DNA from: a virus
Taxonomy: Duplodnaviria > Heunggongvirae > Uroviricota > Caudoviricetes
DNA: 12,106 bases
Strand: one strand, 5' to 3'
IMG/VR virus record: IMGVR_UViG_2744054964_000001
In this document: piece after piece, positions 2,891 to 10,574 of the stretch
How positions within the stretch are numbered: position 1 is the stretch's first letter
Layout of the letters: every line of letters starts with the position of its first letter
Made by a program: the position numbers and the translations under genes
Notes under the pieces: generated by a model
What the model was told of the DNA's origin: nothing
Databases searched by the model: none
The model's input: only the letters and a program-made list of their open reading frames with translations

Positions 2891-3213
2891 GGATTGCTAT
2901 TTAACAGTTAGCCATGGAGAAGGGCAATTGCTCTTTTAACAACGAAGATGGAATCTTCTACGCAGCTGAAAAGCTGGATGCTCTTTAACAGCCTTTGGTG
3001 CTTTCCTGATGCAGGAAAGAATAGGGATACATGCACCTTTACAATGCATGTAATGATTCATCCATGAGGCTGCGGAGCGCTGACAAAGCGCAATTGCTCT
3101 TTAACATTGATGTGGGCGGGATGGTTCATCCCGCAGTGACCGATAGATTTCTATCGGGAAACATACAATGATTCAAATATGAATCTACGGCGCTGACAAA
3201 GCGCAATTGCTCT
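2891..3213. repeat. Array of five direct repeats of the motif (GC)AATTGCTCTTTAACA, including two near-identical 24-bp copies GCGCTGACAAAGCGCAATTGCTCT, in an ORF-free int-alpA spacer
   Basis: Copies at about 2891-2906, 2924-2941, 2975-2990, 3077-3106 and 3190-3213; core GCAATTGC is an 8-bp perfect palindrome; spacing is irregular (33, 51, about 115 and 112 bp). Two small hairpins lie nearby (GCGGGAT..ATCCCGC at about 3114-3132; CCGATAGA..TCTATCGG at about 3139-3157). Confidence 0.5.
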
Positions 3214-4956: not shown

Positions 4957-5131
4957 CCATAATCCGATGCCGGGAAGCCGTTACAAGGATTCGCACGGGG
5001 CTGTAGTGACCGTTGAGCGCGTCGAGCATAACCGAGTGACCTTTTACCGCGAGGGCTATCAGTCGCCATGTGTTCAGCCTTTGGAGAGATTCGTTAATGA
5101 GTTCGTGGAGGTGCGCCGTGATACTGAATGA
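4949..5131 (+). CDS. Small DUF4222-like protein (60 aa)
   Basis: ATG overlaps the upstream stop (ATGCGTAA); SD GGAGGT at 4937-4942; sequence PGSRYKDSHGAVVTVERVEHNRVTFYREGYQSPCVQPLERF resembles DUF4222 small proteins common in enterobacterial P4-like islands. Confidence 0.55.
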   Translation: MRNHNPMPGSRYKDSHGAVVTVERVEHNRVTFYREGYQSPCVQPLERFVNEFVEVRRDTE

Positions 5132-5171
5132 ACCTGCCGCCCAGAAAGAAGCCTTTAATCTGGCTGGCATG

Positions 5172-5187
5172 TTGTCAAAAGTTGACA
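5172..5187. promoter_or_regulatory. Operator-like inverted repeat TTGTCA-AAAG-TTGACA (contains a perfect -35 hexamer TTGACA)
   Basis: Read directly; a near-identical site TTGTCA-AAAC-TTGACA recurs at 10615-10630; no strong -10 hexamer at canonical spacing. Confidence 0.35.
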
Positions 5188-5418
5188 TCTGCAACCTTAC
5201 AAAACCTGATATTGATACCGCAGCGCCTGGAGTTCCGTTACCAGTACGCGAGGCGCTTACCCTCAACAAAAAGATGGTGAGCCGTGCACAGGGAAAACTC
5301 TTAAAGGGTTACGGTTTTATCTGGTATGACCACCTAGCAGAGAAAAGCTGTTATAGTCCAAGCGTTGCTGCAAAATCAGCAACCGGGCGTGAGAACCCGA
5401 ACACACTCAGGGCGACAC

Positions 5419-5441
5419 AGACGCCGAAAGCGTCTTTTTTT
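5419..5441 (+). terminator. Rho-independent terminator (AGACGC-CGAAA-GCGTCT followed by T7)
   Basis: 6-bp GC-rich stem, 5-nt loop, run of seven T; preceded by a second hairpin GTTGCTG-CAAAAT-CAGCAAC at 5364-5383. Confidence 0.5.
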
Positions 5442-5507
5442 GTGTCCATTCACTACGCACATCAAATCAGCGGACTTACCCGTACTGTATCAATGGTGGC
5501 GTTAGTG

Positions 5508-5622
5508 GGGCTACGTTCGCGTAGGCCGGTTTCCTTTGTGTCCGGTATTCTCACCCCCGCTGACGTCACCGCCAATTCAGAGCGTGAGAACTCAGGCGGT
5601 GACTCCTTAAACACAAAGGAGG
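5508..5622 (+). promoter_or_regulatory. Candidate C4/CI-type antisense RNA or RBS-masking leader upstream of the icd-like gene
   Basis: Hairpin CTACG-TTCG-CGTAG (5511-5524); CCGG-TTTCCTTTGTGT-CCGG stem-loop (5526-5545) whose loop TCCTTTGTGT (5532-5541) is the exact reverse complement of ACACAAAGGA (5611-5620), which overlaps the SD AAGGAGG (5616-5622) of the icd-like ORF; second copy TTTGTGTCC at 5439-5447. Confidence 0.35.
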
Positions 5623-5630
5623 CTGCCATA

Positions 5631-5822
5631 ATGGCTACTACCCCTACCCAAAAACCGCAATTTATCTGGATTATCGCAGCAGTTCGCCGCGATATGCCGA
5701 CAATTACCGCCAAAATTCACCATATCGCCGCAGAGACTGAGCAGGAAGCCCGCCGCATTCTGGCGCGGGATCACGTTTGCTTTTTTGCCGGACGTATTCG
5801 CACAGGGGGCGCACATGCTTAA
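5631..5822 (+). CDS. Icd-like small protein (putative host cell-division inhibitor, P1 Icd / P4 Kil-like)
   Basis: 63-aa ORF with strong SD AAGGAGG 9 nt upstream; pattern F-W...A..RR ... AAETEQEARRILA ... FFAGRIR matches the remembered Icd-like family signature. This is the 3' part of a 250-aa track ORF (5070-5822) that is otherwise not credible. Confidence 0.6.
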   Translation: MATTPTQKPQFIWIIAAVRRDMPTITAKIHHIAAETEQEARRILARDHVCFFAGRIRTGGAHA

Positions 5823-7197: not shown

Positions 7198-7539
7198 ATG
7201 ATTACTAAAAATTTCCGACTTAATGCGCTGGCGAATAAGTATGCGTCGGCACTGTATAACCACATTACGGCTATCAATGGTGGCAATTACTTCATGGTTG
7301 ACGCGGCAGGCCAGCAAATCCGTGTGGAGATCGTCAATGGAGTAAAAGGCGTTCGCAGCCTGATCGATAGCTACACACTGGCAGCCATGAAAGTGTCCTA
7401 CCCGCAGTGGGAAACCGTGGGGGTCGAGCTTCTTGAGCGTTGCGTCACTAAGGACGGATTGACTGACGTCGGGCGCGAGATATGGCAAAGCATGGTTAAA
7501 GACATGGGCGCGACAGTGGCAGGAGGCAATCATGCGTAA
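7198..7539 (+). CDS. Hypothetical protein (113 aa)
   Basis: SD GAGGGGG upstream; stop overlaps the primase start (ATGCGTAA). Confidence 0.6.
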   Translation: MITKNFRLNALANKYASALYNHITAINGGNYFMVDAAGQQIRVEIVNGVKGVRSLIDSYTLAAMKVSYPQWETVGVELLERCVTKDGLTDVGREIWQSMVKDMGATVAGGNHA

Positions 7540-9973
7540 TATCGACCTTATCCGCGAAGTGACCAGTGCCGCCGCCGGGCGCTGGCCTTATGTGCTGGCT
7601 GGATTGTCTATCGACGTGCCTGATTCATCGCGCCGCCATTCTCCATGCCCTGCATGTGGTGGAAAAGACCGTTTCAGATTCGACGACAACGGGCGCGGTA
7701 GCTTTATCTGCAACCAGTGTGGCGCTGGTGACGGGCTGGATTTAATCAAGCGGGTTAACAACTGCGACACTACGGAGGCGGCACAGCTTGCCGCTGACGT
7801 GCTGGGTATTGATTACCGGGCAGCGCAAACCGACCCGGTGGCAGCGAGCCATAGAAGAGAGCAACTGGAAGCTGACCGCCAGCAGCGTGAGCAGGAGCGC
7901 CAGAAACAGGCAGCAGAGGATGCAGAGCAGCGAAGGGCTACGTTTGCCCGTCTGTATGCCGGAATGCGCCAGAGTGCCACACAGGGCGAATCTGATTACC
8001 TGCAATCAAAAGGGCTGACCGGGTTTAAATATCCGGTAATGCCGGATGGTTCGTTATTGCTGGAGCTGGTGGACGAATCCGGCGCAGTGGCAGCAGCGCA
8101 AACCATTACACCGCAGGGAGAGAAGCGACTCCTGACAGGTTCAGCAAAGCGCGGGGCATATCACGCCGTAAACGCGCCAGAATCGCCGCAGAGCGTTTTA
8201 ATTGCCGAGGGGCTGGCGACGGCCCTTTCAGTTCACCTGATGCGCCCGGACGCGCTGGCAGTGGCAGCAATTGACGCGGGCAACCTGCTACCCGTTGCCG
8301 AAGTGATGCGCCGGAAACACCCGCAGTCGCAAATTATCATTGCCGCAGATAACGACCACCAGCAGGACGAACAGGCGAACACGGGCAAAGATGCCGCAGA
8401 GAAAGCCGCCTTATCCGTGGCTGGCTGGGTGGCGCTGCCGCCGACAGACTATAAAGCCGACTGGGACGACTACCGCCAGCAAAACGGGCTGGAAGTCGCT
8501 ACGGCTGCGTTTAACGATTCGATGTACCAGATTCAGGGGGAAGCCGTGAAACCACAACTACAGGCCATTGCGGGCGGTAAATCCCGCCGTAAAGCCGAAG
8601 TCGGAGATATTGCACAAATGGCAGCCAGCCAGAAAGCGCGGTTGCTTTCATCTCGATGGGATATGTTGGCGGTTAACCCTGATAGTGGCACTGTTTACTG
8701 TTACGAATCTGGCGTATGGGAGAAGCTACCAGACAGTGAATTAGAAAGGGTTATGGTGGCAATTTTCGACGAGCACGAAGCCCACTACACCGAAAAGGGG
8801 ATTAAATCGGTTGTCGCAACCATGAAGCTGCAAATACCGGTAATTGGTGAGCGGAGCGGGGATCTGATTGGTTTTGATAACGGCGTTTATGACCTCGCCA
8901 CGCAGACGTTTTCCGCCCATTCGCCGGGTAACTGGCTGATGAACCACAATGGGATCACCTACACCCCGCCAGCGCCGGGGGAAAATATTACCACCAGCGC
9001 CCCCAATTTTACCCGTTGGCTGAATCATGCAACGGCTGGCGACCATCATAAGGCCGAGCGTATCAAAGCAGCCTTGTTTATGGTGCTGGCGAAGCGTCAC
9101 GACTGGCAGCTATTCATTGAGATAACTGGCGAGGGCGGCAGTGGGAAATCCGTATTCAGCAGCATAGCAACCACGCTGGCAGGTGAACACAACACCGCCA
9201 GCGGTAGCATGATGACGCTGGACACCGCACGGGGACGAGCGCAGTTCGTAGGAAAAAGCCTGATTATTATGCCTGACCAGACCCGCTATGTTGGAGAGGG
9301 TGCGGGGATTAAGGCCATTACGGGCGGCGATCCGGTAGAGATTGATGGGAAATATGAAAAGCAGTTCACAACCGTGCTAAATGCCGTTGTTATGGCAACC
9401 AATAACGAGCCGATGACATTCACGGAGCGAAACGGGGGCATTGCCCGCCGCCGCGTGATATTCCCGTTTAATAACCCGGTATCAGACGCAGACAAAGACC
9501 CGGATTTAACCGCAAAAATCAGGCGAGAAATCCCGGTGATTATCCGCCACCTGCTAACCACCTTTGCCGACCAGAACAAAGCAAAGGCACTATTACTAGA
9601 GCAGCGCGATTCGCAGGAGGCGCTAGAGGTTAAACGCGGCACAGATCCGGTTGTCGATATGTGTGCGGCGCTTTTTTTCATGAACGAACCCAAAGGCATG
9701 ATGATGGGCGGAGGTACATGGGCAGGCCAGCCAGAGCCGAGGACATATCTTTATCATCTTTATCTGGCGTTTATGGAGTATCACGGCCTGGGTAAACCGC
9801 TTTCCGTCAATAAGTTTTCACGCGCCATAAAATCAGCAGCAAAAGAGTACCGAGCCAGCTACCTGACGAGAAGCATTAACGGCAGAGCGCAAACCAACGT
9901 TGGCTATAACGAGAAGGCTGAGGAGTTCATGCCACGCGCTTACGGCGTGGAGAGCGGGCAGAGTGATGATTGA
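7532..9973 (+). CDS. P4 alpha-type bifunctional DNA primase / helicase
   Basis: 813 aa; N-terminal Cys4 zinc ribbon (CPACGGKDRF...CNQCGAGDG); Toprim-like acidic motifs (LIAEGLATA, IIAADNDHQQDE); C-terminal P-loop GEGGSGKS (nt 9128-9151) of D5_N/SF3-type helicase; SD AGGAGG upstream. Confidence 0.9.
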   Translation: MRNIDLIREVTSAAAGRWPYVLAGLSIDVPDSSRRHSPCPACGGKDRFRFDDNGRGSFICNQCGAGDGLDLIKRVNNCDTTEAAQLAADVLGIDYRAAQTDPVAASHRREQLEADRQQREQERQKQAAEDAEQRRATFARLYAGMRQSATQGESDYLQSKGLTGFKYPVMPDGSLLLELVDESGAVAAAQTITPQGEKRLLTGSAKRGAYHAVNAPESPQSVLIAEGLATALSVHLMRPDALAVAAIDAGNLLPVAEVMRRKHPQSQIIIAADNDHQQDEQANTGKDAAEKAALSVAGWVALPPTDYKADWDDYRQQNGLEVATAAFNDSMYQIQGEAVKPQLQAIAGGKSRRKAEVGDIAQMAASQKARLLSSRWDMLAVNPDSGTVYCYESGVWEKLPDSELERVMVAIFDEHEAHYTEKGIKSVVATMKLQIPVIGERSGDLIGFDNGVYDLATQTFSAHSPGNWLMNHNGITYTPPAPGENITTSAPNFTRWLNHATAGDHHKAERIKAALFMVLAKRHDWQLFIEITGEGGSGKSVFSSIATTLAGEHNTASGSMMTLDTARGRAQFVGKSLIIMPDQTRYVGEGAGIKAITGGDPVEIDGKYEKQFTTVLNAVVMATNNEPMTFTERNGGIARRRVIFPFNNPVSDADKDPDLTAKIRREIPVIIRHLLTTFADQNKAKALLLEQRDSQEALEVKRGTDPVVDMCAALFFMNEPKGMMMGGGTWAGQPEPRTYLYHLYLAFMEYHGLGKPLSVNKFSRAIKSAAKEYRASYLTRSINGRAQTNVGYNEKAEEFMPRAYGVESGQSDD

Positions 9974-9990
9974 AACTTTTACGGCGGCAC

Positions 9991-10238
9991 TTATCCCTAC
10001 TGCCCTACTAAAAACGAGACGAGGCCAGACGTAGCAAGGCTTTAAACTAGGTAGGGATATATATTTTTATCCCTACTTATCCCTACATATCCCTACCAAA
10101 TAAAACAGGCAGCAAAATGCCGTTGAAGTGATTTAGTAGGGATAAGTAGGGTTATGTAGGGCAACAAAATTGAATGCCTACCAGTCTGAAAGCCTTGCCA
10201 TTCGTGGCCTGAGACAGTTAGTAGGGATTGGTAGGGAT
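9991..10238. repeat. Iteron cluster (about 11 copies of the octamer ATCCCTAC / GTAGGGAT in both orientations) flanking an AT-rich stretch; putative replication origin
   Basis: ATCCCTAC-orientation copies at 9993-10000, 10003-10009 (variant), 10069-10076, 10079-10086, 10089-10096; GTAGGG(A/T)T-orientation copies at 10051-10058, 10137-10144, 10146-10153, 10156-10163, 10221-10228, 10231-10238; ATATATATTTTT at about 10057-10068; immediately downstream of the primase-helicase gene. Confidence 0.55.
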
Positions 10239-10292
10239 ATTACACCCCCAAAAAGATTCTATGGGGGGGGTAGCTTATAACGAAGGTGGGCA

Positions 10293-10574
10293 ATGAATAC
10301 AGAAACCAGCCAGAAAATGACCTATCAGGAGCGTGAAGCATTGAAGGGGTTTACTGACAAACGCGCATTACAGGGCGACACCCAAAGCCTGCAAATGACC
10401 TTGAGGATGATCGCCCACTGGATGAGGCAGCCAGCAGAAATTGGATTTACAGAATATGCAACACACTGGACGGCGGCACAGGCCGGACGTGATGACGGGA
10501 ATCACTCGACCGCAGCAATGGCGGAGCAGTGGCCTTTAAGGGAAGAAATGAAAAGCGCCTGCCGTGAAGAGTAA
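10293..10574 (+). CDS. Hypothetical protein (93 aa)
   Basis: ATG with SD AAGGTGG upstream; followed by an operator-like palindrome and an intrinsic terminator; no family recognised. Confidence 0.5.
   Translation: MNTETSQKMTYQEREALKGFTDKRALQGDTQSLQMTLRMIAHWMRQPAEIGFTEYATHWTAAQAGRDDGNHSTAAMAEQWPLREEMKSACREE

Follow-up and report, generated by a model that had tools for sequence, protein, structure and literature searches.

The origins of the Gram-positive phage-inducible chromosomal islands (PICIs), the SaPIs, lie just 3' of the rep gene, where two sets of iterons flank an AT-rich region and recognition is specific to the island. This description is drawn in part from the summary in PMC6092414, in which Fillol-Salom et al. 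2018 described the Gram-negative islands. A pri-ori fragment of one of these, EcCICFT073, supports plasmid maintenance, and loss of either pri or ori impairs it (PMC6092414). In phage P4, the GenBank annotation places crr directly after the alpha gene and ori ~4.7 kb away. The P4 crr contains type-1 repeats in both orientations, arranged in two repeated units that form a direct duplication; in PMC9942202 it appears merely as part of a cosmid. The P4 ori contains six type-1 repeats which, read on the strand where five of the six are forward, begin at relative positions 0, 10, 53 (reverse), 75, 86 and 96.

Here we describe a 12,106-nucleotide stretch of DNA (the window) in which a preliminary description had placed a satellite origin in a cluster of short repeats. 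That interpretation is supported, with the binding and replication functions predicted from sequence. We assign a probability of about 0.86 to the reading that 9992-10239 is the replication origin of a ~12-kb Gram-negative PICI-type satellite residing at tRNA-Thr(CGT)/proA of E. coli, the putative initiator being the island's own primase-helicase.

The island and its distribution

The window is E. coli DNA and contains, from left to right, proA, tRNA-Thr(CGT), a tyrosine integrase, a 67-residue AlpA-type excisionase/regulator, an AntA-family protein, an Ash-family protein, several small ORFs, the primase-helicase, the iteron array, further small ORFs and a PerC-family regulator. The island thus has a specific attachment site, an alpA-type regulator, a rightward gene order and a size within ~8-15 kb, and its annotation contains no phage structural genes. 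Pfam and PHROGs scans of a subset of the window ORFs detected none of the core genes of P4-like satellites listed in PMC10085698 (sid, delta, psu and epsilon), nor do these genes occur in the annotation of a related island from strain PC6 (L002). The PC6 island is ~12.2 kb long and is bracketed by a pair of 22-nt repeats 12.2 kb apart.

Of 5,426 complete E. coli genomes, 77 carry the origin region at an identity of at least 95%. These 77 genomes hold 80 copies, such that three carry the same origin class twice, which bears on the coexistence of same-class satellites. The same primase-plus-array module also occurs in a different island, which has another integrase and occupies a yicC/dinD site.

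Several other repeats and one gene of the island deserve mention. The stretch from the tRNA to the integrase gene contains a 21-nt direct repeat, GTCTACTAAAGTC..TCAAAA (1462-1482 and 1525-1545), together with a tandem ATGGGGGTA pair (1557-1578) that recurs 12,210 bp downstream in the PC6 island (L002 19767-19788). Both are probably integrase arm sites that mark the island ends. Between the genes for the integrase and the AlpA-type regulator are three direct copies of the 24-nt word GCGCTGACAAAGCGCAATTGCTCT (2911-2934, 3077-3100 and 3190-3213), two identical and one at 75%, which may be regulatory binding sites. The Ash-family ORF (5070-5822) encodes 250 residues and its PC6 counterpart (L002 11118-12029) 303; the length varies by island, and in related islands the ORF is annotated as an Icd-like host cell division inhibitor.

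Layout of the iteron array

The array and its parts, with the evidence for each, are as follows.

9992-10239, no strand: whole array of 12 iterons; copy counts, fold, and a layout kept in homologous loci
9992-10008, plus strand: left outer pair, TATCCCTAC at 9992-10000 and TGCCCTAC at 10001-10008; word matches
10022-10043, no strand: conserved non-iteron block of the left spacer, AGGCCAG..GCAAGGCTTT; array alignment, part of an 80-nt inverted repeat
10051-10059, minus strand: lone reverse iteron of the left arm, reading GTAGGGATA on the plus strand; word match
10057-10070, no strand: 14-nt pure A/T run, ATATATATTTTTAT, candidate melting site; duplex stability scan
10068-10096, plus strand: three TATCCCTAC iterons starting at 10068, 10078 and 10088, at 10-bp spacing
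10097-10135, no strand: central spacer of 39 bp and 36% GC, the dyad centre, with a small hairpin, GGCAGCAAAATGCC, inside it
10136-10164, minus strand: three reverse iterons at 10-bp spacing, GTAGGGAT, GTAGGGTT and GTAGGGCA
10174-10181, plus strand: degenerate lone forward iteron of the right arm, ATGCCTAC; a CCCTAC-core copy stands there in several relatives
10186-10194, no strand: conserved non-iteron block of the right spacer, CTGAAAGCC; array alignment, present in EcCICFT073
10221-10239, minus strand: right outer pair, GTAGGGAT and GTAGGGATA
10245-10270, no strand: right-flank element, CCCCCAAAAAGATTCTATGGGGGGGG; conserved across iteron classes

The octamer ATCCCTAC/GTAGGGAT occurs in eight exact copies on both strands, all within 9993-10238, where 0.20 were expected; none of 200 shuffles contained as many as eight. 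Of the 6-mer core CCCTAC, there are 11 copies in 9995-10236 and a single one in the rest of the window. The eight exact octamers, three CCCTAC-core variants and one degenerate copy bring the number of sites to 12, so the earlier count of about eleven copies in about 250 bp was correct, with 11 cores and a degenerate twelfth. The array begins 19 nt 3' of the primase-helicase stop codon (9971-9973), directly after the gene as had been stated.

The preliminary description called the array a bidirectional cluster. Both orientations do occur, but the sites stand in strict palindromic order rather than in a loose cluster: two forward, one reverse, three forward, the centre, three reverse, one forward and two reverse. 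The entire 9992-10239 segment constitutes one imperfect palindrome, in each arm of which two forward sites and one reverse site are followed by three forward sites in 10-bp phase. Within it, a repeat finder identified an 80-nt imperfect inverted repeat, and folding of 9992-10239 as single-stranded DNA yielded one hairpin with a z score of -9.8 relative to shuffles. The left arm sites begin at relative positions 0, 8, 58 (reverse), 76, 86 and 96; those of the right arm are their mirror image.

The presumed initiator

The gene that precedes the array encodes the following.

7532-9973, plus strand: primase-helicase of 813 residues, presumed initiator; ORF list and Pfam
9641-9919, plus strand: residues 704-796, putative origin-binding domain of winged-helix type; 1KA8 match, and divergence that tracks the iteron word

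Pfam assigns to the 813-residue protein a Zn-ribbon, a Toprim domain, D5_N, an SF3 helicase region and a Pox_D5 C-terminus. This domain set, and 38% identity with P4 alpha over 98% of the query, bear out its assignment as an alpha-type primase-helicase. Residues 704-796 match the solved P4 origin-binding domain (PDB accession number 1KA8) with an E value of 4e-8.

Residue 781 is the sole alignment column that splits the domains associated with the CCCTAC class of iterons (Ser, Gln or Val) from those associated with the TCTAC class (Lys or Leu), and is therefore a candidate specificity position. Judged by general winged-helix topology, it is presumably where the predicted wing begins. An AlphaFold model built from the single sequence of the C-terminal 123 residues had a pLDDT of 53, too poor for mapping helices and wing, and a homolog search with the C-terminal domain alone returned 12 close fragments only, which left the alignment no deeper.

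Conservation of the array in homologous loci

Homologs with 47-99% primase identity were collected from species-representative genomes (20 loci) and from viral contigs (22 loci), to which P4, EcCICFT073 and EcCIRM13514 were added. Loss of iteron position in homologs had been named beforehand as an argument against an origin; instead, the ~260 bp after the primase stop codon contain an array of the same site order and closely similar spacing in all but one of the ~45 loci with downstream DNA. Most of these arrays have the full layout, and a few have only part of it. The words that fill this layout are as follows.

TATCCCTAC: the class of the window
ACsTCTAC: viral-contig loci L028-L036 (L033 and L035 have the CCCTAC core)
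TATCTCTACC: L006
GGTCTACC: L013
TGTCTACC: EcCICFT073
aaCCCTACC: Aeromonas
TGTTCACC: Tatumella, Rahnella, Erwinia, Serratia, EcCIRM13514 and P4; also L017 and L037
TGTTCAG / TATTCAG: Yersinia

Among loci that share the word of the window, the mean pairwise identity is 0.81 for iteron columns versus 0.56 for spacer columns. Literature text containing GTAGGGAT consisted of unrelated primer sequences only.

The exception is L008 from Serratia fonticola, where the array is absent both downstream of the primase and throughout the 10-kb locus, and the link between gene and array is thus not absolute. Its primase shares 66% identity in the helicase and 55% in the C-terminal region, and a coding region begins 44 nt after the stop codon (L008 6415-6855); this element may have lost its origin. 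L040 was considered as a second iteron-free exception and was rejected upon inspection, which revealed the same array as in L039.

Co-variation of the iteron word with the primase C-terminal domain

Helicase core and C-terminal domain were each compared with their counterparts in the window protein, with the following identities.

L017 and L037: helicase 81%, C-terminal domain 33%, iterons TGTTCACC
L033, L038 and L022: helicase 81-82%, C-terminal domain 90-92%, CCCTAC core
L028-L036 except L033 and L035: helicase 89%, C-terminal domain 76-78%, ACsTCTAC
L035: helicase 90%, C-terminal domain 89%, CCCTAC core

The iteron word tracks the primase C-terminal domain and not the helicase core. Over 30 loci, iteron-matrix distance and C-terminal distance are correlated (r = 0.81); there is some circularity in these comparisons because the matrices were built with class-specific anchors. 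When helicase distance is controlled for, the partial Mantel r over the same number of loci is 0.79 with a permutation p of ~2e-4, which is indicative only because the loci are related by descent and the p-value overstates their independence. The reverse partial correlation is -0.27. Together with clear swaps of domain plus origin, the partial correlation confirms the co-variation of word and primase C-terminus proposed earlier.

As specificity determinants, alpA, the integrase and the ORFs on either side of the primase gene were also considered, and were rejected because none tracks the iteron class. Most loci that share the iterons of the window lack the downstream ORF, which has 78% identity in L017 and L037, whose iterons differ.

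In L017 and L037 (6436-6760) and in L048 (8055-8300), a P4-like C-terminal domain accompanies the exact P4 word TGTTCACC. The islands of this class, as P4 itself, have an AT-rich stretch between the outer pair and the lone reverse site, unlike the window class, in which the A/T run adjoins the triplet. Since the shape of the origin goes with the P4-like domain, the whole origin module appears to travel with the domain.

The A/T run and other non-iteron elements

The 20-mers across 10057-10070 are the least stable duplexes of the 12.1-kb window (top 0.017%), and the TATATAT of the run is nearly invariant in the array alignment. The run is short (14 nt) and occurs in the left arm only, between the third site and the first site of the phased triplet. 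An AT-rich tract bracketed by iterons had been described; the strongly A/T run exists, but it lies within the left arm, and the 39-bp centre is only moderately AT-rich.

The two spacers contain mirror partners, AGGCCAG..GCAAGGCTTT (10022-10043) and CTGAAAGCCTTGCC..TGGCC (10186-10207). These blocks are conserved in relatives that use other iteron words, including EcCICFT073 (where CTGAAAGCC is found), and may bind a second factor, possibly one of the host. Outside the right end of the array, the flank motif CCCCCAAAAAGATT-N4-GGGGGG (10245-10270) is found at the same position in L027, L028, L033, L036 and L044, and a related motif, AAACTTTT..GG, stands at the left end (9974-9990), after the primase stop codon.

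A scan of 9800-10400 revealed neither a sigma-70-like promoter nor a terminator following the primase gene; the sole terminator-like site is weak, on the minus strand and at the array centre. An RNA gene at the array was considered and rejected, as Rfam gave only sub-threshold matches to microRNA hairpins, which mirror the palindrome.

Proposed function of the array and alternative readings

From homology and co-variation, the C-terminal domain of the primase-helicase is predicted to recognize the 9-bp word TATCCCTAC at the 12 sites. These form two inverted six-site modules, each laid out in sequence like the P4 origin. The phased triplets would set bound protein on one face of the helix beside the A/T run, and binding to both arms may concentrate the protein such that the adjacent run melts, as suggested by analogy with SF3 initiators. 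The inverted arms could then load SF3 hexamers in opposite directions, leading to bidirectional replication, a step modelled on SF3 initiators and on mpox E5, and the fused primase of the same protein would start synthesis. Exchange of word and C-terminal domain together between lineages would give each satellite a private origin specificity.

The array might instead be a crr-like cis-acting helper that binds the primase, with initiation at a separate origin in the island. In P4 it is crr, such a helper, that follows alpha, and it too has type-1 repeats in both orientations in two repeated units, so position alone is no proof of initiation. However, there is no second iteron cluster either in the window, where a single lone CCCTAC lies at 5642, or in the complete related island L002, where all eight exact copies (8/8) are inside one array. 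The arms match P4 ori, and not crr, in site order and spacing, and pri with its downstream region alone sufficed for plasmid maintenance of EcCICFT073 (PMC6092414). A helper role is thus improbable. The earlier comparison with P4 ori/crr is corrected to the extent that the element after alpha is crr and not ori, while the resemblance to ori holds for the layout within each arm. Judged by its layout, the array is in the crr position but is built of two ori-like modules in inverted orientation.

A second alternative is that the repeats are operators for downstream genes or for autoregulation, bound by the primase or another island protein. A gap of 319 bp separates the primase gene from the next ORF (10293-10574) and contains the array, and the flank element at 10245-10270 is just upstream of that ORF. 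The missing sigma-70-like promoter argues against operators, as do the downstream ORF, which varies independently of the word, and the other island ORFs and integrase, which do not track it. Moreover, 12 palindromic sites around an A/T run are origin-like and not operator-like, and we regard operators as very unlikely. The DnaA box has the consensus TTATCCACA, which TTATCCCTA matches at 7 of 9 positions, but relatives with the same layout use words unlike it (e.g., ACGTCTACC and TGTTCACC), the word co-varies with the primase C-terminal domain and the module occurs with different integrases, so that host DnaA boxes, or sites of a packaging or recombination protein unrelated to the primase, are hardly credible.

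If 9992-10239 is the replication origin, its annotation locates the origin of the satellite family carried by the E. coli genomes counted above, and the 2-1-3/3-1-2 site pattern in the 260 bp after a primase gene provides a rule for finding others. The paired exchange of domain and word would amount to a natural set of orthogonal initiator-origin pairs. Such pairs could explain private satellite replication, although 3 of the 77 genomes carry the same origin twice, and could serve as compatible, inducible replicons for engineering.

We tentatively extend this, at slightly less than even odds, to a family-wide proposal. Enterobacterial PICI and P4 alpha-type replicons would share a common palindrome plan of two six-site modules, each with the layout of the P4 origin; the winged-helix and array cassette would be exchanged independently of the helicase and of the remaining island, giving at least six to eight specificity groups; residue 781, on the predicted wing, would be one determinant; and P4 ori plus crr would be a rearranged derivative. 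Specificity classes, the P4-origin equivalence and cassette exchange were not found described in the open-access papers searched.

Comparison with known systems

The SV40 large T antigen and papillomavirus E1 are SF3 helicase initiators whose origins have inverted short words beside easily melted DNA. The window array shares this arrangement, and its geometry would suit two opposed hexamers, but the viral sites have no sequence relationship to those of the window. The mpox E5 helicase forms a head-to-head double hexamer, and no origin-binding role was found for its homologous C-terminal domain (PMC12137749); the role of this domain is therefore not uniform across the wider family and the double-hexamer analogy is partial. 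By description, SaPI origins follow a plan like that of the window, whereas host range and iteron words are unrelated.

With P4, the window shares a homologous initiator, a homologous C-terminal origin-binding domain and 8-bp words in both orientations. Each arm is ordered and spaced like the six type-1 repeats of P4 ori (two, one reverse, three), and the array is in the same place as crr, directly 3' of the initiator gene. The systems differ in the word, which is TGTTCACC for P4 type 1 and TATCCCTAC in the window, as the preliminary description had noted; in the distribution of sites, which P4 splits between ori and crr ~4.7 kb apart whereas the window has one locus with two inverted arms; and in gene content, since the window island is without sid, delta, psu and epsilon among the ORFs scanned.

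The likeness to PICI-type origins suggested at the outset is apt. The gene order is int, alpA, ..., pri, ori, ..., perC, the origin is immediately 3' of the pri/rep gene, and two sets of short iterons surround AT-rich DNA, with the 2-1-3/3-1-2 order in both published islands compared. By exact core match, EcCICFT073 has sites in the order 2, 1, 3 and then 2, 1, 2, with spacing that matches the window and the word TGTCTACC. By the same measure EcCIRM13514, with the word TGTTCACC, has 2, 1, 3 and then 3, 1 plus a right outer pair; one copy of this pair, like a further GGTGAA beside it, is not a full iteron. The window initiator has 813 residues with Zn-ribbon and Toprim, whereas the proteins of EcCICFT073 and EcCIRM13514 have 585 and 607 residues; the EcCICFT073 protein aligns with the window protein in its helicase and C-terminal regions. 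Table S1 of PMC6092414 does not list the tRNA-Thr site beside proA for E. coli. The putative recognition word TATCCCTAC is new in that neither EcCICFT073 (TGTCTACC) nor EcCIRM13514 (TGTTCACC) matches it. The family-wide layout, the P4-origin equivalence and cassette exchange are useful generalizations that extend a known theme and do not define a new kind of system, and the array is a new specificity class of the known PICI/P4-alpha origin type.
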